Notes: generated from the letters alone by a model not told the origin. 20,000 nucleotides of DNA from an uncultured virus (IMG/VR IMGVR_UViG_3300010885_003647) (IMGVR_UViG_3300010885_003647), one strand, 5' to 3'; counted from the first letter of the stretch, positions 6,544 to 18,733 are shown. A program made the numbers and translations.

Positions 6544-9500
6544 ATGCCATTAGTTAATGTTGAAGGTGTAGGTCTAATCGACTTTCCTGAAGGTATGTCG
6601 GGCGAGCAAATTGATGCTGCGGTTAGAAAAGATATCCTTCCACAATACCCCGATATTGCCGCTAAAACAAAACGTGGATGGGGTGAAGCCCTAACTGACG
6701 TAGGCGCTAGTGCTATTAAAGGTGTTGGTGCTTTAGCTCAGTTACCTGGGCAGATTGGGCAATTAGCAGGTGTTGTAGCTCCTACCGAAACTAATACTGG
6801 ATTGCAAGGTATCGGTAAACAAATAGAACAGTTTGGTGAAGAAGCTAAATCTCCAATACTTAAAGGTAAAGAAGTAGTACGTGGACAAAAGATTGAACAA
6901 GCAGATGGAATGCTTTCTGAATTTGGTACTGCTTTTAAAGAGACAATTAAAGACCCAGCATTACTATCTTCATTCTTTGCAGAACAATTACCAAACTTAG
7001 CTGGTTCATGGGGTGGTGGCTTACTAGCTAAAGGTACAGCTAAAGCTTTGATGATGGCTACTACTGAACAAGCATTGGCTAAAGTAGGGGTTGCAGGTGC
7101 GGTTGGTACAGGCGCTATCCAACAAGGTGCTGATGTTGGTTCTGATACTTACGAAACCATCTACAAACGTCTTATTAAAGAAGGTATGGGGGATGAGCAA
7201 GCTAATGGTATTGCTTTATCCAAGGCTCGTGTAGCCGCTTTAGAAGCCGCAGGTTTATCTTTAGGTACAGCCGCACTTCCTGGTGGTACTGCTATTGAAC
7301 GTGCATTAGTTGGTAAGGGTTTACCTGGAGCTGGTGGATTTACTAAAGGTCTTTTGGGCGAAACAGCTTCTGAAACTATCGAAGAAGGTGGTGGTAAGCT
7401 TGCATCCAACTTAGGCGTACAAGAAGTATTTCCTGAGACAAGTTTAACTAAAGGTGTAGGTGCCGCTGCAGGTATGGGCGCACTGGGCGGTGCATTGTTT
7501 GGTGGTGTTGCTGGATATGTAAATGCAGACCGGGCTACTCCTGAACAGAAACAAATAGTAGCTGATGGTATCGATACTGTACAACAGCTAGAAGATCAAG
7601 CTCGCCGTGATGCGTTTGAAGCCGAGCAAAAAGCTATTGAACTCCGTGCCTTGGAAGAACGTCATGGGTTTACAAATTCAGCAGCATACGCTGAACTATC
7701 TGCAGAAGTAGAAAGATTAAAAGCAAAAGCCCAATTAGCGTTCGCTAAAGCGGATAAAGGTAAAGCAGAGATGTCTGCGTTTGCAGAAGCGCAACCTGAT
7801 TTGTTTGGAATGGTTACTGCCGAAAAACAAACACAAGAAGCTGAAGTTCAGCCACCTGTAGAACAACCTAATCAATTATCTTTACCTCTTGAAGATCAAC
7901 AATCACTTGCACTTAACGCTCCACCGCAACCATTAAATTTAAACTTACCTGCTCAGACGCAAGCTCCAGTAGTTCAAGGTCGCCCTATTACGCTAGAAGA
8001 TATTAAAGGTATGGGTATTGGTGGTGGTCCAAACGTAAAGATCAAACAAGCTATTTTAGGTAAAGATTTAACTGACCCTAAACAAGCTGCAGAAGTTAAA
8101 GCTGCTTTGGAAGAATACGCTGGTGGTGATCGTAGTGCTAGCATTATTGCTAAAGTAGAAAGATTTTTAAATAGCGCTCCATTCCTAGAACAACAAAAAC
8201 TTAGTTTGCGTCGCCCGTATGGTAGTATGAAGAAACCTGGAGTAGAAACTCCAACGGAAGAAGAACAAGCACTCTATCAAGCGGAACTAGAAGCACTACA
8301 AACATCGGAGGAACAAAATGCTGGAAAACCTATTGAACCTCTCAATGGAGGAAATGAGCCAAGCGTTCGCGTGCCTAGCAAGCGACCTGCCATCCCCACC
8401 GCAACTAAAAAACCTAAACGACGAGGAGTGGTTCCTCCTGTCGATACTACTGGACAACCTATTGGAGCAGAAGTACCAGTCGAGCGTACACTAGGCGCAA
8501 AACCATTAACCTTAGAAGAAAAAGCGGCGCAGGCTATTGCCCAGCGTCAAGCCCCTAAAGGTGGTTACAACCCAGATATTCAAGAACCTTCTGTAGAACT
8601 CAGTACTCGTCATGCTAGAGAATACAAAGAAGCTATTGGTAACTACTTAGAAAACGCAAACTATATAGGAGCTAAGGCTCTTGATGCACTTGCTGGTGAT
8701 ATGCACGCTGGGGACAACCTTACAGATGCTAAGAGAGCGTACCGTGGGTTATCTGAAGAACAAAAGGCTTACGTAGCAGAGAAAACTAAAGAGTTAGAGA
8801 AGTACACTCGTCGTGGTGATGCGTATGCTAAACAACAAAACGAAGAAGTCGCAAGACGTAAAGCTTTCCAAGGTGAACTTGACGAACAAGAGAAAAGCCC
8901 TAAGCTTGAACGCATCCTTCCTGGTTCAACAAACGAAGAGCTTACGCAAGCTGTGCAACGGGGCGACCTTAACGCAGCACTAAACGCAATCGCCAAAGAC
9001 AAATCTGACACATTTAACATCTTAGAGAAACTGGTCTCAAATCGCCTTTTGGCAAATAAAGGTAGCCTACCTAAGATTGAAGTTGTACCCGCTGGAACTA
9101 TTAAAGATGGCGCAGCGCAATACAATCCGTTTACCGATACCGTTCAGATCAATGAGGGTGAGGTTGATTCGCATACTGTGCTACATGAAACCGTTCATGG
9201 CTTCTTGCACGCATTGATTCAGAAGTTTGAGGCAGGTGCTAAGAACAAAGGTATTGCTGATCTTAAAACTCTATACGACTTTATTAAAGAGAACCACCCT
9301 AACGTAGCAGAAGAATATGGCATGTCTAGCTTGACTGAGTTTGCATCTGAACTTATGTCTAACCGCCAATTCCAAGAAACCCTTGCACAGATTCCATATC
9401 GTGCAGAAGCTCAAAACTTATTTAGTGCATTCATACGCGCTGTATTAAACGCATTAGGGTTATCCCCAACATCTAAGTTAAGCGCACTAGCTAGCGGCTT

Positions 9501-12216
9501 GTTTGCGGCAGATCGTTCCCTTGCTATAGGTCGTAAGATTCAAGAGGATGTAGTTACAGGTAAAGAGACCTTACCTACGGCTAAAGTAACCCGAGACTTA
9601 GAAGCCATATATAAAGCTACTGGACCAAAAACAGTAAAGCCTGCTACTACGCCAATACAGTCAGTTCAAAATACTAAGAAAGAAATTAAAAACTTAGCGT
9701 CTAGTTTTGAGACTATGTATCTGTCATCTGATGCTGCTTTAAACAATGCTATTCGTAAGGGTCTAGAAGCTAACGGCAAGGATTGGGATACTACTAAGAA
9801 CGCAATGCTTGAAATAAGCACCTCTCAGGCTACTCATGCCGATGCTGTGGCAGATCAATTCTTAAGAGAAGGTAATGTTGAGTACGACCCTAAGTTACAT
9901 AAGTGGGAAGTCAAATCTGCCAAAGATAGCTGGGCAAAACTAATTACAAAAAACTTAGCTGATATTGCTAAGAAGTATGGTATTACTCAAGACCAAGCAA
10001 ACAATTATGCTAACCAAGCTTTGGTTGCTAGCCGTTTAGATGGACTATCTAAATCAGATAAAGAAATCTACAGTCACATGACCCCTGAGCAGATTAAGGC
10101 TGGTCTATCATTCTTTGAAGCAATACCTGAGCTAAAGGCAGTTCGAGATAGTTGGAATGCAATTCGTAAAAATGTAATGAAGGTAGCAATTGAAGGCGGT
10201 TTGTACAACGAACAACAAGCTGAAGAACTACTAAAGATTATGGACTATGTGCCATTTTTCCGTATTGAGCAATTAGAACAGAACGCTGGGCCTAGTGAAC
10301 GTGGTGGTCGTGGTTTACTTAACTTTGCTAAGAACTACAAGATTAAAGGTAGTGAGCAGGAAGTTAACGATATCTTTGATAACATGGGTCGTTGGACTAG
10401 CTATACCGTATCCCGTGCAGTTAAGAACCGTTCCGCATTAAGCTTAAAGAATGCTGCAATTCAATTCCTACCAGAAGGCGAAGTGAAAGAATTACGCATA
10501 GACGAGAGTACAAAGAAAGAACAACACGTAATTGATATATGGGAAAATGGACAACGTAGGAAATACGAATTTTCAGATCCATTGTTTATACATGCTTTCC
10601 AAGGTATTGATGGTATAGCTATCCCTCATTTTGGTATGGCGCAAGCGGCATCTAATATATTACGTAAGACTATTGTAATGGTGCCTATCTTTTCTATTAG
10701 TCAGCTTTCTCAAGATTCGTTTGGTGCTATGCTTACTTCAGGACTTAAGCACCCTTGGGCATTACCATTAGAAGTAGTTAAAGAATTTACTAAGACTCTA
10801 TTTAATAAAAGTAAAACCCATAAAGAACTGACCGCTATCGGTGCAGTAGGGACAAAAGATTATTCTGCAACTACTGGGTTATTGGGTGCTACTAGACGAG
10901 AGACTATTGAAAGAGAAGCAGGGTTAAAGAAGACTCCTATTTGGTCTCGTTTATATAACAGTTTAGAAAAGTTCTCAATGACATCTGATAATGCTGTTCG
11001 TCAAGCTGTTTATAATTTGACCATGAAAGAAACTGGGGATAAAGCTTTAGCTACTGAGAAGGCTTTTGAACTTATTAACTTTAAACGTACAGGTGCTAGC
11101 GCTAAGGTGCAATTGCTTCGTCAGGTAATACCATTCTTTGGCGCATACTTGCAAGCACAAAACGTTATCTATAAGACTCTAGCTGGTAAAGGCATATCTC
11201 CAGTACAACGTAAAGAAGCCCATCGTATCTTAGCTAGTAATGCTTTGAAGATCGGTGCTTTAGCGTTTATGTATGCCGCCCTTGCAAGTGATGATGAAGA
11301 GTATCAGAAGATGGATCCAGCTATACGTGACCGTCATTTATTAATTCCTGGTACAAACTTCATGCTCCCTATGCGTAGCGATTTGACTTTAATGCCTAAG
11401 TTAATTGCGGAATACACCTATCTTGGTATGACAGATAATGGCTTTACGGATGGTAAAAAGATTCGCCGTGCTATGACTGATGCCCTTGTCAATGCAGTAC
11501 TAAGCCCAACCGTTGCACCGCAAGCAATTAAACCAGCCTTAGAGGTATTGGTAAACTACGACTTCTTTACAGATCGCCCAATTATCGGACAGGGTATTGA
11601 GCACAAAATTACTGCAGAGCAGTATACAAATAGTACATCTGAATTTGGTAAGTTTATTGGTAGTTCGGGATTGATTGCACCTGTGAATGTAGACCACTTG
11701 GTTAAAGGCTATATGGGTACTGTAGGGGGATTAGGGTTAATGTTTACAAATGCTGTTGTAAACGCAGGTTCAGACCAACCAAAACCCGAAAAGAGTCTCC
11801 AAGATACTGTTTCTTCTGTACCTGGATTGAGTGCGTTTTTTGCAAAAGAGTATGGCAACGCAGATAAGAACGATTTCTATGAGTTACGTAAAGATGTAGA
11901 TAAGGCAGTAACTACATTTAATTCAATGAAAAAGCAAGGGCGTGTTGCAGAGGCTAAAGAGTTTTTAGAAGAAGGTACATTGAATCCTCTTAACCCATTT
12001 AGCCCAAATGTAAAAGACTTACTTAAAGTTAATAAGCAGGTGGACAACATTAACAACCAGCTAACCAAGCTAAGAGATTACGAAAAGAAAATATACGACT
12101 TGCCTGAGTCTAGGATGAGTGCAGAAAAGAAAGGTGAAGAGATTCGCCGTGTTCGGGAGATGGAGAAAGTATATTTAAGTAATGTGCACAAGCTACGCCA
12201 AATGGCTGGCTATTAA
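6544..12216 (+). CDS. Large polyvalent ejection-type protein with zincin-like metallopeptidase motif and LPD38-like C-terminal domain
   Basis: 1890 aa. N-terminal IDFPEGMS motif and G/A-rich hydrophobic region (aa ~45-325). HETVH (HExxH) at 9184-9198 with a downstream EFASE third-ligand motif at 9337. The C-terminal RHLLIP...NYDFFTDRPI...PVNVDHLVKGYMGTVG pattern resembles LPD38. Last gene of the structural arm. Confidence 0.75.
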   Translation: MPLVNVEGVGLIDFPEGMSGEQIDAAVRKDILPQYPDIAAKTKRGWGEALTDVGASAIKGVGALAQLPGQIGQLAGVVAPTETNTGLQGIGKQIEQFGEEAKSPILKGKEVVRGQKIEQADGMLSEFGTAFKETIKDPALLSSFFAEQLPNLAGSWGGGLLAKGTAKALMMATTEQALAKVGVAGAVGTGAIQQGADVGSDTYETIYKRLIKEGMGDEQANGIALSKARVAALEAAGLSLGTAALPGGTAIERALVGKGLPGAGGFTKGLLGETASETIEEGGGKLASNLGVQEVFPETSLTKGVGAAAGMGALGGALFGGVAGYVNADRATPEQKQIVADGIDTVQQLEDQARRDAFEAEQKAIELRALEERHGFTNSAAYAELSAEVERLKAKAQLAFAKADKGKAEMSAFAEAQPDLFGMVTAEKQTQEAEVQPPVEQPNQLSLPLEDQQSLALNAPPQPLNLNLPAQTQAPVVQGRPITLEDIKGMGIGGGPNVKIKQAILGKDLTDPKQAAEVKAALEEYAGGDRSASIIAKVERFLNSAPFLEQQKLSLRRPYGSMKKPGVETPTEEEQALYQAELEALQTSEEQNAGKPIEPLNGGNEPSVRVPSKRPAIPTATKKPKRRGVVPPVDTTGQPIGAEVPVERTLGAKPLTLEEKAAQAIAQRQAPKGGYNPDIQEPSVELSTRHAREYKEAIGNYLENANYIGAKALDALAGDMHAGDNLTDAKRAYRGLSEEQKAYVAEKTKELEKYTRRGDAYAKQQNEEVARRKAFQGELDEQEKSPKLERILPGSTNEELTQAVQRGDLNAALNAIAKDKSDTFNILEKLVSNRLLANKGSLPKIEVVPAGTIKDGAAQYNPFTDTVQINEGEVDSHTVLHETVHGFLHALIQKFEAGAKNKGIADLKTLYDFIKENHPNVAEEYGMSSLTEFASELMSNRQFQETLAQIPYRAEAQNLFSAFIRAVLNALGLSPTSKLSALASGLFAADRSLAIGRKIQEDVVTGKETLPTAKVTRDLEAIYKATGPKTVKPATTPIQSVQNTKKEIKNLASSFETMYLSSDAALNNAIRKGLEANGKDWDTTKNAMLEISTSQATHADAVADQFLREGNVEYDPKLHKWEVKSAKDSWAKLITKNLADIAKKYGITQDQANNYANQALVASRLDGLSKSDKEIYSHMTPEQIKAGLSFFEAIPELKAVRDSWNAIRKNVMKVAIEGGLYNEQQAEELLKIMDYVPFFRIEQLEQNAGPSERGGRGLLNFAKNYKIKGSEQEVNDIFDNMGRWTSYTVSRAVKNRSALSLKNAAIQFLPEGEVKELRIDESTKKEQHVIDIWENGQRRKYEFSDPLFIHAFQGIDGIAIPHFGMAQAASNILRKTIVMVPIFSISQLSQDSFGAMLTSGLKHPWALPLEVVKEFTKTLFNKSKTHKELTAIGAVGTKDYSATTGLLGATRRETIEREAGLKKTPIWSRLYNSLEKFSMTSDNAVRQAVYNLTMKETGDKALATEKAFELINFKRTGASAKVQLLRQVIPFFGAYLQAQNVIYKTLAGKGISPVQRKEAHRILASNALKIGALAFMYAALASDDEEYQKMDPAIRDRHLLIPGTNFMLPMRSDLTLMPKLIAEYTYLGMTDNGFTDGKKIRRAMTDALVNAVLSPTVAPQAIKPALEVLVNYDFFTDRPIIGQGIEHKITAEQYTNSTSEFGKFIGSSGLIAPVNVDHLVKGYMGTVGGLGLMFTNAVVNAGSDQPKPEKSLQDTVSSVPGLSAFFAKEYGNADKNDFYELRKDVDKAVTTFNSMKKQGRVAEAKEFLEEGTLNPLNPFSPNVKDLLKVNKQVDNINNQLTKLRDYEKKIYDLPESRMSAEKKGEEIRRVREMEKVYLSNVHKLRQMAGY
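8318..8494 (+). CDS. Putative overprinted 58-aa protein nested in the +1 frame of the giant gene
   Basis: GGAGG at 8307-8311 lies 6 nt before ATG 8318; TAG at 8492-8494. Translation MLENLLNLSMEEMSQAFACLASDLPSPPQLKNLNDEEWFLLSILLDNLLEQKYQSSVH looks helical, while the host frame here is a disordered P/K-rich linker. Confidence 0.6.
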   Translation: MLENLLNLSMEEMSQAFACLASDLPSPPQLKNLNDEEWFLLSILLDNLLEQKYQSSVH

Positions 12217-12240
12217 AAAAGGACCCCGCCGAAGCGGGGT
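12215..12240 (-). terminator. Rho-independent terminator of the - strand replication arm
   Basis: The minus strand reads ACCCCGC-TTCG-GCGGGGT-CC-TTTTTT: a 7-bp GC-rich stem, cUUCGg tetraloop and U6 tract, between convergent genes. The + strand has only a weak U tract. Confidence 0.88.
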
Positions 12241-12284
12241 TAAGTCCTCAATGTGGGGTAGAGGAGAAGAGTGAGGTAACTATA
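12215..12284 (-). ncRNA. Candidate 3'-UTR small RNA with an anti-Shine-Dalgarno loop
   Basis: Minus strand AGU(UA)CCUCA-[CUCUUCUCCUCUACCCCACAU]-UGAGG-ACU followed by the terminator. The loop is complementary to the GGAGAAGA RBS of three genes in this window. Confidence 0.45.
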
Positions 12285-12485
12285 TCACTTAATCCTCCAT
12301 AAGCGCAAGCCATATATTCCATTTTCTACAACTTGCTTGCATTTGACTTCCATACCCAGACGCTTAGCTTCTGCTAACAATTCCTTTTCATGGGCTTTGC
12401 GGTCTAGGCACGGTACAAAAAACGAATCACCACACTCAAGCCGCATCCACGGCATCAGGAAGGTTTGGTTCAGAATCTTTAACAT
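12285..12485 (-). CDS. Small hypothetical phage protein (66 aa)
   Basis: Protein-like pattern W..LECGDSFFVPC...GIYGLRLWRI. It overlaps the primase gene end by 50 nt and ends just before the stem-loop/terminator. Confidence 0.7.
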   Translation of the reverse strand: MLKILNQTFLMPWMRLECGDSFFVPCLDRKAHEKELLAEAKRLGMEVKCKQVVENGIYGLRLWRIK

Positions 12486-15615: not shown

Positions 15616-16512
15616 TTACTCCTCGTCATCCCAATCAGAAAGAATCTTGCTCAAGTCTTTCTTAGCGGTTGGTTCTTCTTTCTTAGCAGTACGCTTAGTA
15701 GGTTCTACCAATGCTTCAGCTTCTTTTTCAACCTTGATTACTTCTTCAGGGTCTACAATCTTAGCCTTTGGCGCATCTAACTTAGGCGCATCTTTCTCTG
15801 CCTTGGCAACTGTCATAGTGATTGCCTTGATAGCTTCTGCGCTCTTGCCTTGGTCGATAGCCGTAGCAATCTCACTTGACTCTAAGAAACGTACTGGTTT
15901 GAAAGTAATCTTAGGTGTAGAACTTGCAGTATCAAAACGCATCTCTGTAACAACTGCAGTAATAGGAACACCTTTAGCACCGATCATTTTAGCGTACATT
16001 TGGAGAGGCCACTTACCAGCTTCACCTTCACCGAAGATTGAAGTAGAAGGAAGAACTAATTGGAATACATCTCCACCAATATCGTTATCCAATACAACTG
16101 CAATACGTTGACTAAAGCGGCAAGCACGACCATCACCTTGACCTGAACCTTTAATGTTCTGTGGGCAGTTAGCGCATCCAGTAGACTGTGGTGCTTCTAC
16201 AGATTTATCAGGATAGTCGCCGTTGGCAGACCAGCAATCAGGAGGTGCAGATACACCCTTCTTGTATGTACCAGCGTAGTAAGTACGAGCAACTTTAGAT
16301 GATGCCGCAACTACCACCACATTAAGATTACGTTCTTCTTTCTGTGCAATCTCTTTACCGTTTACTAACAAGCGCCATACACCGCCCTCGATAGAAATAC
16401 GTTTGCTACCGCCACCACCATTACCCATAAGGGCTTTAGTAGTATCATCCAACTCCAACGCTTGTAAGTGCGCTGGTAAACCCATGTCCAACATAGCAAG
16501 TTCTTTGCTCAT
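15616..16512 (-). CDS. Putative ssDNA-binding/annealing protein with four-Cys motif
   Basis: 298 aa with a beta-rich core, PDCWS...CANC...RACRF, a K/E/A-rich linker and an acidic aromatic tail (SDWDDEE) as in phage SSBs. It lies in the replication module; AGGAGAAGA RBS. Confidence 0.55.
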   Translation of the reverse strand: MSKELAMLDMGLPAHLQALELDDTTKALMGNGGGGSKRISIEGGVWRLLVNGKEIAQKEERNLNVVVVAASSKVARTYYAGTYKKGVSAPPDCWSANGDYPDKSVEAPQSTGCANCPQNIKGSGQGDGRACRFSQRIAVVLDNDIGGDVFQLVLPSTSIFGEGEAGKWPLQMYAKMIGAKGVPITAVVTEMRFDTASSTPKITFKPVRFLESSEIATAIDQGKSAEAIKAITMTVAKAEKDAPKLDAPKAKIVDPEEVIKVEKEAEALVEPTKRTAKKEEPTAKKDLSKILSDWDDEE

Positions 16513-16521
16513 TATCTTCTC

Positions 16522-16914
16522 CTATTTTCTACTACGAGTAACTCGTACAACATATTCAGCATCCGCTTGAAGCCCTGGCGGGTGCAAATCAGGGTTTTCT
16601 GCAAGGAACGTATCAACATTCCCATTGGAAATTCTTTGGTGTAAAAAGTGAAAGGCATTATGTTCTTTAATAAATGTATATAAAGATTCCCAATCACTAG
16701 TCCAATATCTTTTGTTTAACTTACGGCTGACTGTGCCATGTTGCGTCTTCAATCCATCCGTGCCTGTGTCTTTGCAAATAGATAACAACTCGGTTTGAAT
16801 TATCTCTTGTTGCTCTTCTAAGTCTCGAATTTGTTTCTCTAGTTCGAGTCGCTTGTCACGGATTTTTATATACGTTTTAACTAGCTTGTCGGCTGTTGCT
16901 TGGTGTTCACTCAT
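16522..16914 (-). CDS. Hypothetical phage protein with N-terminal coiled coil (130 aa)
   Basis: Strong RBS AAGGAGAAGAG-ATG directly after a sigma70 promoter; coiled coil YIKIRDKRLELEKQIRDLEEQQE. Confidence 0.75.
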   Translation of the reverse strand: MSEHQATADKLVKTYIKIRDKRLELEKQIRDLEEQQEIIQTELLSICKDTGTDGLKTQHGTVSRKLNKRYWTSDWESLYTFIKEHNAFHFLHQRISNGNVDTFLAENPDLHPPGLQADAEYVVRVTRSRK

Positions 16915-16940
16915 CTCTTCTCCTTCTTATCTATACCCAC

Positions 16941-16969: not shown

Positions 16970-18516
16970 CCCTCATCTTGAATTATATTTTTATAAAGAT
17001 CAATCATTTTTGTATGTATGTCTACCTTACCCTGCAACATCTTATACATTCTTTTTTCTACAGGGGAACCCTGCAAATGAACTACTGTGCAAGGATTATG
17101 TTGCCCTGCACGATGCACCCGAGCGTTAGCTTGAAGGTACGTTTCAACGGAAGTAATAGGGGAAAACCATACTACTAAGTTAGCGGCAGTTAGTGTTACT
17201 CCGTGTGCGGCGGCTTGTGGTTGTATTACTAGAATCTTTGGGTTAGGTTCTGTTTGGAATCTAGCGAAAATGTCTGTGCGATTACCTGCTGATACTGAGC
17301 CATTTATAATCTCTGCGGTATATCCTGACTTTCTCAATTCTTCTGTAACAATCTCAATAGCATGTCGGTAGGGAACAAATATTAGCACCTTATGACTAGC
17401 CTCGTCAATCACTTCTTTTAGTGCGCTAATCCTGTTGGAAGCATCGAACTCAACTACCTCTCCACTATCCGAATAGACTGCACCACATGAAAGCTGGAGT
17501 AATTTATTCAAGTTTGCGGCAGCATTAACTGTAGTGATTTCTTCCCCAGCGGCTACGGCTAACATGTTCTTTCTAATGATTTCATAATACTTTTCTTGCT
17601 GCTGAGTAAGCGGAACGTCACGCGTTACATAAGTCATATCAGGTAGGTCTAGACACTCGTCTTTGGTAAACCGTATTGCAGGTTGTAGTACTGTGTGTAT
17701 TGTTTTCTCTGAACTAGGTTTTGGAACCCATTTAAACTGGGTTAGTTTGAACATCACCATGTCCCTGAAAGAACCGTAGAACTTAGGTACTGACTGTGGG
17801 TTAACTAATCTTGCTAGTCCGTATGCGTCTGTTGGTGACTGAGAAGCTGGTGTGCCTGTAAGCATCCATAACCAAGTGTGTGGTTTGATTATAGAGTTTA
17901 GTATCTTCCAACGTGTTGTAGATACCGTCTTGTATGCGTTAGCTTCGTCTATAACAATAAGGTCAAAGTCCCCAGCGATTACGGCATCCTTGATAATCCC
18001 TAAGCCATCGTAGTTACATATAACAAACTCAGCATCACCTTCTACTGCTTGGATTCGCTTCTCTCTTGAATAACTATGGGCTATGGAACAAGTGCGGTGC
18101 ATAGCAAACCTAAACAAATCATTCTGCCAAGCCGACTGCATAATAGATAGAGGGCAAAGAACTAAGACTCGTTTAATCATACCTACCTTCATTAGGTAAT
18201 CAGCCGCCCATATCACGCTACCTGTCTTGCCAGTACCTTGCTCGTTAAAACAAAATGCACGGCGGTGTAGGGTTAGGAACTCAGCGGTAGTACGCTGGTG
18301 GTCAAATGGTTTGTAGAGTCCAGGCCAATCGTAATGCGCTCTAATGGGGGAGGGTACACCACGCAGTTTTAGGTTCTTTAGTATTTGGGCTTCTTCTAGT
18401 CCCCAGTTTACCAATACCTCACCTGTGTCGAGCAACTTGCTCTTTGGGATTATCGTGGTAATGCGGTTAGGCTCACGTACTTTAACTAATAAAGCCTTGT
18501 TATCTATGATTTCCAA
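16966..18516 (-). CDS. SNF2-family (SF2) helicase; probable TTG start at 18516
   Basis: Motif I NEQGTGKT, motif II IVIDEAN, motif III LTGTP, motif V HGVTLTAA, motif VI QANARVHRAGQ. GGAGAAGAGA lies immediately before TTG 18516, matching the RBS of neighbouring genes; the track start at 18543 lacks an SD. Confidence 0.88.
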   Translation of the reverse strand: MEIIDNKALLVKVREPNRITTIIPKSKLLDTGEVLVNWGLEEAQILKNLKLRGVPSPIRAHYDWPGLYKPFDHQRTTAEFLTLHRRAFCFNEQGTGKTGSVIWAADYLMKVGMIKRVLVLCPLSIMQSAWQNDLFRFAMHRTCSIAHSYSREKRIQAVEGDAEFVICNYDGLGIIKDAVIAGDFDLIVIDEANAYKTVSTTRWKILNSIIKPHTWLWMLTGTPASQSPTDAYGLARLVNPQSVPKFYGSFRDMVMFKLTQFKWVPKPSSEKTIHTVLQPAIRFTKDECLDLPDMTYVTRDVPLTQQQEKYYEIIRKNMLAVAAGEEITTVNAAANLNKLLQLSCGAVYSDSGEVVEFDASNRISALKEVIDEASHKVLIFVPYRHAIEIVTEELRKSGYTAEIINGSVSAGNRTDIFARFQTEPNPKILVIQPQAAAHGVTLTAANLVVWFSPITSVETYLQANARVHRAGQHNPCTVVHLQGSPVEKRMYKMLQGKVDIHTKMIDLYKNIIQDEG

Positions 18517-18540
18517 TCTCTTCTCCAATAGGAATACCAC

Positions 18541-18733
18541 CAAAACCGTAGTTTTGATTTATTATAAGTAGCACCTTACGGGTGCTATTCGGTTGTCTCT
18601 CTGTCCAAGGAAGAAAATGCCCCGTGAAGGGAAAACATTTAATTAACAGCGACAACTGATATGGTTATATTGGGCGAGTATCGGACCCTGTTGCTAACAC
18701 TCATACCTTACTTCACAACAATACCACAACAAC
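18541..18733 (-). other. Structured intergenic leader with several hairpins
   Basis: CAAAAC-UACG-GUUUUG (18556-18541), UAGCACC-CGUAA-GGUGCUA (18587-18569), and long-range GUUGUC/GACAAC (18656-18651 with 18597-18592). Confidence 0.45.

Follow-up and report, generated by a model that had tools for sequence, protein, structure and literature searches.

The replication operon of the uncultured virus IMGVR_UViG_3300010885_003647 ends in a convergent intergenic region (12217-12284) that holds a small-RNA-like element, which raises the question of whether the end of the operon encodes an RNA acting on the ribosome-binding sites (RBSs) of the operon's own genes. An earlier note on the window (the whole stretch of 20,000 nucleotides that was analysed) had proposed a repressor of this kind, built from a stem, a 21-nt pyrimidine-rich loop and a terminator. 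Hardly any regulatory RNAs are known from virulent, uncultured phages, and most of the phage small RNAs described so far belong to temperate coliphages and act on host genes or immunity. The observation made in the earlier note is partly confirmed, in that its sequence facts hold and its fold does not, and its interpretation as a small RNA repressing its own operon is partly supported. The best reading, at about even confidence, is that the minus-strand element is an anti-RBS small RNA of ~57 nt, which would probably dampen the translation of three replication genes.

The region is flanked on its 5' side by a 1890-aa plus-strand gene with its stop at 12216, and on the other side by the last minus-strand gene, which ends in a TGA stop at 12287-12285. 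This last gene of the replication operon is small and has a stop codon that overlaps a -10-like element; the way third codon positions vary among relatives supports coding on the minus strand in the given frame. The gene and the parts of the element downstream of it are as follows:

12285-12485, minus strand: small conserved gene of 53-66 aa, start uncertain, overlapping the 3' end of the primase gene
12262-12273, minus strand: the seed, a conserved CU-rich anti-RBS motif that reads CACUCUUCUCCU and complements AGGAGAAGAGUG
12245-12265, minus strand: hairpin 1 of the minimum free energy (MFE) fold, UCCUC 12265-12261, 11-nt loop, GAGGA 12249-12245
12215-12244, minus strand: A/U linker CUUA 12244-12241, terminator, CC and U6, from the terminator scan

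The intrinsic terminator hairpin (ACCCCGC-UUCG-GCGGGGU at 12240-12223, minus strand, followed by CC and by U6 at 12220-12215) has a 7-bp stem and the UUCG loop that had been claimed for the minus-strand end, and the scan calls it on the minus strand only. Among 25 distinct RNAs, RNAalifold finds compensatory changes in the stem pairs of the terminator (AU/GC/GU and CG/UA).

The claimed CU-rich stretch is likewise present on the minus strand ahead of the UUCG terminator, where positions 12271-12251 read CUCUUCUCCUCUACCCCACAU. Conservation in the intergenic region is strongest over the anti-RBS stretch, CA-N-UCUUCUCCU (12273-12262). YTCTTCTCC occurs in 24/24 related loci that reach the region (31 related loci in total, of which 7 stop short of it), and scans of IMG/VR and metagenomes extend the family to 35 unique sequences, or 30 distinct RNAs, all with the motif and drawn from several clades, despite differing hairpins and terminators. 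The form A.TCTTCTCCT is invariant both in the 25 distinct RNAs of alignment A2 and in the 22 aligned intergenic regions of alignment A1, and the seed is invariant as A.UCUUCUCCU in the same 25 RNAs, which are not alike in their hairpin loops, linkers and terminator loops. Comparing clades whose primases are 65-88% identical, the flanking spacer, hairpin loop, linker and terminator loop are variable, and 10 of the first 12 positions are invariant. The earlier note had named a loop not conserved in relatives as grounds for refutation; the CU-rich, RBS-complementary part is invariant across diverged relatives, and therefore this check did not refute the idea. Nor is the conservation of the motif coding, because the frame is shifted in clade 2 by a deletion of 2 nt and in locus L095 by an insertion of 2 nt, and the motif is the same in both. 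No second copy in the same orientation was found in the complete relatives, and the other terminators in the window lack the motif.

The fold differs from the one first proposed. In the MFE structure of 12284-12215 (-20.3 kcal/mol) UCCUC pairs with GAGGA with a probability of 0.913, whereas the CCUCA/UGAGG stem of the earlier note reaches -18.3 kcal/mol, 2 worse than the MFE, with a pair probability of 0.075, and is broken in relatives (e.g., CAUCA in L002-L004, AUCACA in L006, AUUCA in clade 2). On this fold the CU-rich stretch does not form a loop of 21 nt; it is predicted to consist of a single-stranded 5' part and a 3' part lying in the 5' arm of the hairpin. The predicted architecture is shared by 25/25 distinct RNAs: 8-11 free nucleotides at the CU-rich 5' end lead into a hairpin that varies, and an A/U linker connects this to the intrinsic terminator, with at least six different stem solutions at the position of hairpin 1. 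Hairpin 1 contains G.U pairs in L014, L015 and RNAs of the L022 type, which would read A.C on the plus strand; these pairs favour the minus strand as the functional one. If the RNA starts at CA, seed positions 1-8 (12273-12266) are predicted to be unpaired with a probability of at least 0.9. The last 3-5 nt of the seed are placed in the stem of hairpin 1, so that full pairing over 9-10 bp is predicted to require the opening of 3 bp, and in the context of the mRNA the 5' half of the seed is predicted to be able to pair with the stop-codon region.

The complementarity of 9-10 nt to three replication-gene RBSs, on which the first proposal rested, is borne out at all three sites. It is perfect, and the sites lie on the same strand 4.2-6.3 kb upstream, with promoter-like sites before the 130-aa gene. 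The predicted targets are:

18514-18526, minus strand: target 1, GGAGAAGAG 18526-18518, then A and the TTG start (18516-18514) of an SNF2 helicase
16912-16924, minus strand: target 2, AGGAGAAGAG 16924-16915 with the ATG of a 130-aa gene
16510-16523, minus strand: target 3, AGGAGAAGA 16523-16515, then UA and the ATG of a 298-aa gene

The helicase (Pfam SNF2-rel_dom and Helicase_C) starts with TTG or GTG at the same place in relatives, and GGAGAAGA stands directly before this start in 18/22 loci and before an inserted small ORF in the other 4. The 130-aa protein has weak Gam/gp157-like and Pam3 gp33-like matches; the RBS of its gene keeps GGAGAAGA in 21/29 relatives and lacks it in 8/29, with the seed unchanged there. 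The RBS of the 298-aa gene has GGAGAAGAT, and keeps GGAGAAGA, in 29/29 relatives, with a U facing the C of the seed in most clades. The label of SSB given earlier to the 298-aa protein finds no backing, as Pfam, NCBIfam and PDB yield no match to the protein and AF2 models it with a pLDDT of only 33. A second pairing, CCCACA with UGUGGG, had also been claimed for the 130-aa gene; UGUGGG does occur at 16941-16936, but it is not conserved, most clade-1 relatives having UAUAGG or UAUAGA instead, and the bipartite pairing is not supported.

On the strand of the RNA in four genomes, GGAGAAGA is an RBS (before an ORF of at least 68 aa) in 15/16 occurrences, with the start 1-4 nt after it in genuine RBSs, and it occurs 5-10 times per record in ten related records (G001-G010) versus 0-3 times for the reversed control. 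With 20000 composition-preserving shuffles of the 13-mer, perfect complementarity of at least 8 nt to at least 3 of 15 start regions has P=0.0116. The pairing check against start regions that had been suggested places the three RBSs at ranks 1-3 of the 15 tested in the window by cofold net energy (130-aa gene -21.4, 298-aa gene -12.4 and third site -7.9 kcal/mol, all others -6.6 or weaker), and the ordering is similar in relatives. In whole-genome duplex scans of clades 2 and 3 the RBSs are not at the top, and G-rich coding sites score alike. Strict conservation of the RBSs can be explained by translation efficiency alone.

Changes in the seed offer a further comparison. The variable seed position forms a Watson-Crick pair with the 130-aa RBS in 22/25 genomes, a G.U pair in 1 and a mismatch in 2 (CxA in L030, AxA in L365), and a change from C-G to U-A occurs in two separate clades. 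In the co-change check called for by the earlier note, 3 of 5 independent pairs changed in the same way, none in the opposite way and 2 were unchanged (sign test p=0.25); the covariation of seed and RBS is suggestive and, at 5 independent pairs, underpowered.

The sequence upstream of the seed resembles a promoter, the parts of which are:

12303-12308, minus strand: weak -35-like TTGCGC, read from the sequence, 18 nt upstream of the -10-like hexamer
12279-12287, minus strand: TGATATAGT, the TGA stop 12287-12285 plus TATAGT 12284-12279, which reads as an extended -10 (TGnTATAAT-like)
12273-12278, minus strand: 6-nt spacer TACCTC between the -10-like hexamer and A 12272, the predicted +1

Among the 35 unique sequences, 28 have TATAGT as the hexamer that stops 6 nt short of the conserved A, 5 have GATAAT and 1 has TACACT. 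The GATAAT type is that of clade 2, where the register is kept despite the 2-nt deletion, and the sole exception to the fixed register (34/35) is L095, in which the hexamer is displaced by 2 nt. In L095 TGC also replaces the TGA stop, yet TGcTATAGT is retained. Alignment A1 shows no variation at A(-11) or T(-7), and CA stands at the predicted -1/+1. The spacer is variable in sequence (TACATC, TATCAC, GGGGTC, GAACTC, TAATTC and others) and constant in length in 34/35. The -35-like hexamer matches TTGACA at 3/6 positions and falls within the small gene's coding sequence, at its GLRLW codons; TTGCG is found in all relatives, but it is coding. The promoter scan of the window does not list the proposed -10/-35 promoter. 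Because a -10-like hexamer ends exactly 6 nt before the conserved A in 34/35 sequences, the data suggest that the element has its own promoter, and instead of being processed from a 3' UTR it may be a small gene in its own right.

Several other explanations bear on the same observations. It is quite unlikely that the plus strand is the functional one, with AGGAGAAGA-NTG as a further copy of the RBS cassette after the late operon. On late transcripts that read through, such a copy would load ribosomes onto a start-stop, a mini-ORF or a short ORF (e.g., to stabilise or shield late RNA, or to couple to Rho). The variable position does give start codons in 34/35 sequences (GTG 27, ATG 6, TTG 1) with the adjacent TG invariant, unrelated matches to the pattern in IMG/VR are mostly reverse complements of an RBS plus ATG on the opposite strand, and there is no U-tract after the hairpin on the plus strand, so that late transcripts may read through. 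However, no conserved ORF follows, as clades 1-2 reach a stop after 1-2 codons and the 52-62 codons of other clades are antisense to the small gene; the start is always 0 nt after the 8-mer here versus 1-4 nt in genuine RBSs; and L139 has GTT, which is no start codon, while keeping the motif and, through compensatory changes in the hairpin, the minus-strand architecture. Only the minus strand suits the G.U pairs and the terminator, and the -10-like hexamer in fixed register is left unexplained. Less probable still, and already disfavoured, is that only the terminator is functional and that the conservation reflects recent ancestry or chance. Many of the 35 sequences are closely related, with a mean column identity of 75% in alignment A1, but spacer, loops and linker vary between clades around the invariant positions, and the stems of hairpin and terminator both carry compensatory changes.

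A real minus-strand small RNA with its targets elsewhere (host mRNAs, other phage genes, or Shine-Dalgarno (SD) sequences in general) is an unlikely alternative in which the matches to the phage's own RBSs follow from both being SD-related. The seed core CUCCU is anti-SD-like, a plain GAGGAG SD before an HTH gene likewise reaches -2 to -11 kcal/mol, ranking by energy across whole genomes lacks specificity in clades 2 and 3, and there is weak sub-threshold Rfam similarity to CU-rich small RNAs (RF02278 and RF02837). Against this, the invariant stretch exceeds the SD core, with UCUUCUCC pairing with GGAGAAGA, this 8-mer is almost exclusively an early-gene RBS on the minus strand, and U-A/C-G changes occur together in the seed and the 130-aa RBS in two clades. 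It is quite unlikely that the motif is kept for a reason other than pairing, as a site on RNA or DNA for a protein of phage or host (e.g., one that binds pyrimidine tracts or regulates termination or replication) or as part of a signal for operon termination or 3'-end stability. Conservation alone is silent on the ligand, and the motif adjoins the operon terminator at the boundary of the early and late modules; such a role does not account for an exact reverse complement of the 8-mer that the RBSs share (P about 0.01 against CU-rich shuffles) or for the co-changes of seed and RBS. Operators would give repeated copies in the same orientation, which the complete relatives lack, and the other terminators of the window are without the motif.

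In the anti-RBS reading, we infer a discrete RNA species from a minus-strand module of ~57 nt, roughly 12272 to 12215, in which the CU-rich seed (A)CUCUUCUCCU is single-stranded and forms the 5' end, a small hairpin comes next, and a Rho-independent terminator closes the module with its U tail. Such an RNA would arise as the tail of the replication-operon mRNA or, more likely also, as a primary transcript with its 5' end set by the extended -10 promoter TGaTATAGT overlapping the stop codon of the last gene. Its seed would base-pair in vivo with the lineage-specific extended SD GGAGAAGA(G), which lies 1-4 nt before the starts of the SNF2 helicase, 130-aa and 298-aa genes and, in relatives, before those of a few further early genes. 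With the RBS occluded by this pairing, translation of the replication genes would fall, and the duplex might be exposed to RNase III; the repression might serve as feedback or as an early-to-late timer. A stronger version, rather unlikely, makes this a post-transcriptional regulon in which the ~57-nt RNA masks the private extended SD GGAGAAGA of early and replication genes simultaneously. Encoded at the early/late boundary, the RNA would shift translation from replication proteins to late genes, which would escape through weak AAAGGU-type RBSs, and late read-through across the intergenic region would produce a perfect antisense that removes it, a self-contained RNA timer for the lytic programme of a virulent phage. 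If the anti-RBS reading is confirmed, the replication module would be autoregulated at the RNA level, and its anti-RBS/RBS pair would be simple and portable; if it is refuted, one would still have to explain why a pyrimidine motif of 10 nt next to a terminator is so strictly conserved.

Judged by sequence and predicted structure, the element is a candidate new RNA family, compact, conserved across clades and absent from Rfam, of a known kind of regulator. It offers testable targets (at least three replication-gene RBSs sharing one 8-mer) and a plausible promoter. No Rfam covariance model reaches its gathering threshold, and the matches rest largely on the terminator: SorY (RF02651) scores 21.1 versus a threshold of 111, the second-best match, tsRNA (RF02278), 19.5 bits versus 50 (E 0.51, over 12215-12269), and anti-hemB (RF02837) 15.9 versus 49.5; C4 (RF01695) gives no match up to E=10. 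The RF02278 toxic small RNA carries CU-rich anti-SD motifs. DapZ and MicL of enterobacteria are 3'-UTR-derived Hfq-type small RNAs with an internal promoter that share the Rho-independent terminator of the mRNA; the gene of each overlaps the 3' end of a coding gene, the promoter falls within that ORF or at its end, the seed lies near the 5' end, and they act in trans on unrelated mRNAs, whereas the predicted targets here are genes of the same operon or module. The c4 RNA is co-transcribed with its target in the same operon; unlike c4, the element here has a 3' end position, a linear 5' seed, predicted targets among replication genes and an apparently lytic lineage.

In the available text on the c4 antisense RNA of phages P1 and P7, the RNA pairs around the RBS of a phage gene and blocks its translation, a likeness to the present candidate phage-encoded RNA with its predicted pairing at the phage's own RBSs; c4 is described there as lying upstream of icd/ant, with two loop sequences and a role in temperate-phage immunity (PMC12197685). 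The Betaproteobacteria toxic small RNA (RF02278) is given in the part of its source at hand as 57-92 nt long and chromosomal (PMC4603805), and to that extent the element is like it in being short, with a terminator and CU-rich stretches, although its score is below threshold and it is not a member. In Staphylococcus aureus, the available account of the icaR mRNA has a UCCCCUG in the 3' UTR pair with the SD region of its own transcript, in cis or trans, blocking ribosome loading and making an RNase III substrate (PMC3868564). The likeness is a pyrimidine-rich anti-SD motif in the 3' UTR (PMC3868564), here complementary at the sequence level to the SDs of genes of its own operon or module. As far as that account extends, the icaR case involves one gene of a bacterium and a single target, with 260 nt between the stop and the motif; the motif here, predicted from sequence, lies 12 nt past the stop of a phage operon's last gene, directly before hairpin and terminator, faces at least three RBSs with an extended SD of 8-9 nt and, unlike icaR, probably has its own promoter. 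The lambda PreS/LPR1 RNA, in the available part of its description, is a phage base-pairing small RNA that influences replication in the lytic cycle, with the host gene dnaN as a target whose translation is enhanced (bioRxiv 10.1101/2024.10.31.621285); the element here has no sequence relation to it. The parts of an Hfq-type module, i.e., a GC-rich terminator with a U-tract, a preceding hairpin and an A/U linker, are found in sequence and fold in 25/25 RNAs, together with a conserved seed that is single-stranded and accessible in the predicted fold.

The window belongs to a viral contig fragment of 23.5 kb in which a - strand replication module converges on + strand structural genes, with the element lying between the two:

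6544-12216, + strand: 1890-aa LPD38-domain protein, last of the structural genes
12217-12284: convergent intergenic region holding the element (68 nt)
Ending at 12285, - strand: small gene of 53-66 aa, last of the replication module
Remainder of the replication module, - strand: PD-(D/E)XK nuclease, SNF2 helicase, 130-aa gene, 298-aa gene, small HTH protein, and 952-aa DUF927 primase-like protein

Every sequence string quoted in the earlier note was found at its coordinates, and the terminator (ACCCCGC-UUCG-GCGGGGU followed by U6) was called on the - strand only. The 81-nt region folds with z = -3.66 versus shuffles, and the minimum free energy (MFE) structure pairs UCCUC (12265-12261) with GAGGA (12249-12245) at -20.3 kcal/mol and a pair probability of 0.913. 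The proposed CCUCA/UGAGG stem with a 21-nt loop (-18.3 kcal/mol, 2 worse than the MFE) has a pair probability of 0.075 and is not conserved; the observation is real as sequence and was wrongly drawn as structure. A bipartite contact between CCCACA and UGUGGG, also proposed, is present in the window and used by the cofold, yet it is not conserved among relatives: UGUGGG, which overlaps the -10 of a promoter-like site, is UAUAGG, UAUAGA, or UGUGGA in most relatives of clade 1, whereas the RNA loop stays the same.

With the primase as protein query, a scan of IMG/VR recovered 31 related loci at 65-100% identity. The motif YTCTTCTCC is present in all 24 loci that reach the intergenic region (the remaining 7 end short of it), and with the anti-RBS (ribosome-binding site) motif kept throughout, the interpretation survives the loop-conservation test set by the earlier note. 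The longest invariant run among 22 aligned, non-identical intergenic regions (omitting L008, L018, and L027, duplicates of L006, L017, and L026) is C32 A33. T35-T43, or CA.TCTTCTCCT. Further subclades came from pattern scans of IMG/VR and metagenome contigs, most other matches being unrelated, and the family now counts 35 unique sequences, which encode 30 distinct RNAs; the seed starts with CAC in 27, CAU in 6, CAA in 1, and AAC in 1. Small-gene coding extended or read through across the motif was rejected as an explanation, since the frame shifts between clades and clade 2 has an in-frame TAA: clade 2 carries a 2-nt deletion between the small-gene stop codon and the motif, and locus L095 carries a 2-nt insertion plus a TGA-to-TGC change, its open reading frame (ORF) passing through the motif in another frame. 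Judged by these frames, conservation of the motif does not come from coding. In L095/L188 (record G008), where the stop is TGC instead of TGA, the small-gene ORF stays open across the motif and hairpin 1 and ends at a stop codon beyond them, and this locus keeps the -10-like hexamer, the motif, the hairpin, and the terminator.

Beyond these relatives, a nucleotide search of the phage collection gave no match to the window. The nearest cultured phage by protein is Pseudomonas phage Rollin (27% primase identity), which has no corresponding intergenic region because its convergent genes overlap there. A primase search of bacterial genomes found no relative and therefore gave no clue to the host. 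PF00940 (T7-like RNA polymerase) had no match in two complete relatives, but control genomes were equally silent, which makes this negative uninformative.

When 25 distinct RNAs, each spanning 53-63 nt with the conserved CA at one end and the U-tract at the other, were folded singly, all 25 had a common layout of 8-11 unpaired 5' nt (the seed), a hairpin, a linker, a GC-rich terminator, and a U tail. The 5' arm of the hairpin starts within the last 1-5 nt of the motif, and the linker is 3-5 nt long and A/U-rich. Hairpin 1 is built from at least six sequence solutions (including UCCUCGA/UUGAGGA, UCCUC/GAGGA, UCCUCG/UGGGGA, UUGACU/AGUCAA, CCU-GACU/GGUC-AGG, and UCCUUAACU/GGUUAAGGA), its G.U pairs would become A.C on the + strand, and compensatory changes are seen in the terminator stems. 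RNAalifold on a MAFFT alignment recovered the terminator alone since hairpin 1 cannot be aligned from one clade to another, and this hairpin was therefore judged by the single-sequence folds. The architecture reads as the footprint of a structured - strand RNA, with the motif apparently retained for a role beyond local structure.

The motif can also be read on the + strand, where AGGAGAAGA-NTG would be an RBS plus start codon. A GTG, ATG, or TTG does follow AGGAGAAGA in 34 of the 35 sequences, and most unrelated database matches to the pattern are RBSs of this sort belonging to genes on the other strand. However, no conserved ORF follows on the + strand (1-2 codons in clades 1-2), locus L139 has GTT in place of the start codon with everything else retained, and the start adjoins the 8-mer (0 nt) here versus 1-4 nt in real RBSs, and the evidence from structure and terminator holds for the - strand only. 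Alternatively, the motif might serve a host-directed or generic anti-SD role, might be a protein or DNA site, or might be kept by plain ancestry. A functional - strand element is judged quite likely.

On the - strand of the whole contig, GGAGAAGA occurs four times, three of these being the RBSs of the helicase, 130-aa, and 298-aa genes; on the + strand its sole occurrence is the complement of the element. Only 1.16% of 20000 shuffles of the CU-rich 13-mer reach perfect complementarity of at least 8 nt to at least 3 of 15 start regions, and the complementarity is therefore unlikely to be due to chance, but not overwhelming alone. The 298-aa gene is preceded by GGAGAAGAT in 29 of 29 related loci. 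At the helicase, GGAGAAGA lies ahead of the start codon in 18 of 22 loci (and ahead of a small inserted ORF just upstream in the other 4), and it is retained at the 130-aa gene in 21 of 29 relatives, the variants there being AAGGAGAGUAU in L006-L008 and AAGGAAGAAGAG in L024-L028. On the RNA's strand of four genomes, an ORF start (at least 68 aa) lies 1-4 nt after GGAGAAGA in 15 of 16 occurrences, and each of ten related records contains 5-10 copies, versus 0-3 of the reversed control. Several additional copies are RBSs of other early-strand genes, and the RBSs of other genes differ (e.g., primase AAGGCGGCU; late genes AAAGGU). Cofolding of the window RNA with 15 start regions placed the 130-aa (-21.4), 298-aa (-12.4), and helicase (-7.9) genes as the top three, followed by the HTH gene (GAGGAG; -6.6) and the remainder at -4.4 or weaker; the same genes are generally best in relatives. 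In clades 2 and 3, a blind whole-genome duplex-energy scan did not set the RBSs apart from other sites.

Frequent variation in the seed is confined to position 12271 (C, U, or A), which lies opposite the base that follows GGAGAAGA. On a tree of 3 kb of primase and small-gene DNA (33 rows, RNA region excluded), 5 changes fall in the seed and 3 in the 130-aa RBS base, with C-G to U-A replacements on the L347/L373 stem and within the L021/L023 group, and with L005 as a wobble intermediate (U.G). Of the 33 rows, 8 were left out because their 130-aa RBS is not GGAGAAGA; among the remaining 25, whose 130-aa RBS is canonical, pairing is Watson-Crick in 22, and mismatches at 12271 occur in L030 (CxA) and L365 (AxA). 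Among five independent pairs differing in the seed, the RBS followed the seed in 3, went against it in 0, and did not change in 2, giving a sign-test p = 0.25, the best value attainable with 3 informative pairs. The covariation between seed and 130-aa RBS is suggestive, not proof. On the short branch between the sister contigs L362 and L365 (~4% apart over 3 kb), the seed base changes from C to A and the facing 130-aa RBS base from G to A, leaving a non-pairing AxA; these changes co-occur without being compensatory, and the RBS change creates an ATG.

Directly upstream of the element, the small-gene stop codon and the TATAGT behind it, TGATATAGT, together resemble an extended -10. Of the 35 unique sequences, 28 have TATAGT, 5 GATAAT, and 1 TACACT as the hexamer that ends exactly 6 nt ahead of the conserved A; in L095, TATAGT stands 8 nt away, and TGcTATAGT is kept though the stop codon is lost. 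GATAAT is the hexamer of clade 2, where it holds the same register despite the 2-nt deletion. The sequence of the 6-nt spacer between hexamer and conserved A varies freely, and the conserved C-A is compatible with a -1/+1 pair. The -35 candidate (TTGCGC, 18-nt spacer) is weak and within coding sequence, and a generic promoter scan did not list the site. Setting the extended -10 register against the weak -35 and the missing scan call, we infer, with good motivation, that the element may have its own promoter and a transcript start near 12272. The same sequence would also form the 3' end of operon read-through mRNA, in which the 5' half of the motif is predicted to pair with the stop-codon region RAGUGA.

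Rfam returned no family at threshold (best SorY, 21.1 versus 111, and CU-rich tsRNA, 19.5 versus 50), and no description of the element or lineage was found in the open-access papers searched. In layout the element resembles 3'-UTR sRNAs with an internal promoter. We rate it a new RNA family, an anti-RBS small RNA or 3'-UTR element of a kind already known. The systems closest in function are the icaR 3'-UTR anti-SD element (PMC3868564) and the P1/P7 c4 RNA (review PMC12197685). The odds seem even that the candidate function, masking of the phage's own GGAGAAGA RBSs, is the correct one. The earlier interpretation gains a conserved sRNA-like architecture and a plausible promoter; expression, pairing, and direction of control stand as predictions.

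Several observations concern the neighbouring genes. The 1890-aa protein has its LPD38 domain at residues 1584-1754 and a metalloprotease-like HExxH stretch, and resembles large polyvalent proteins of mobile elements more closely than a classical tail protein. On the + strand at 12217-12260, past the end of this last late gene at 12216, the late operon has no U-tract behind the shared hairpin on its own strand, and late transcripts may therefore continue into antisense of the small and primase genes; such read-through RNA would be a perfect complement of the candidate RNA. The small gene shares 11-50 nt with the primase gene at the latter's 3' end, in a different frame (12436-12485, - strand). 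The position of its start codon varies (ATG in the window, AAG or ACG at the aligned codon in relatives), the N-terminal stretch (I/M)PW-R-LE is conserved, and the true start is probably upstream and variable. For the 130-aa and 298-aa genes (15616-16914, - strand), weak leads are the Pam3 gp33-like (PF23984, sub-threshold) and Pam3_Gp34 families, the latter a lead for the 298-aa protein from the Atlas only (17% of one cluster). Nothing confirms the label of SSB given previously to the 298-aa protein, which contains four conserved Cys, ends in an acidic DWDDEE tail, has no match in PDB, Pfam, or NCBIfam, and gave an AF2 model with a pLDDT of 32.9. A promoter-like site (TTGACA-17-TACATT, 16969-16941, - strand) lies just 5' of the 130-aa gene with its -10 (TACATT or TAAATT) retained in clades 1 and 2, and the replication module may therefore comprise more than one transcription unit.

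Translation of the SNF2 helicase appears to begin at a non-ATG codon that follows GGAGAAGAG/A by 1-3 nt in every case (window and L003-L031): the window (18514-18516, - strand) and most relatives have TTG, and clade 2 and L031 have GTG. The in-frame start listed first by the ORF tool, at 18543, probably goes unused. Several relatives carry a small additional ORF between the conserved GGAGAAGA RBS and the helicase (66 aa in L007, L008, and L352; 68 aa in L030; 65 aa in L362; 83-84 aa in L370 and G010; 180 aa in L347; also in L012), and the insert takes over the motif while the helicase uses another start. This site looks like a hot spot for moron-like insertions.
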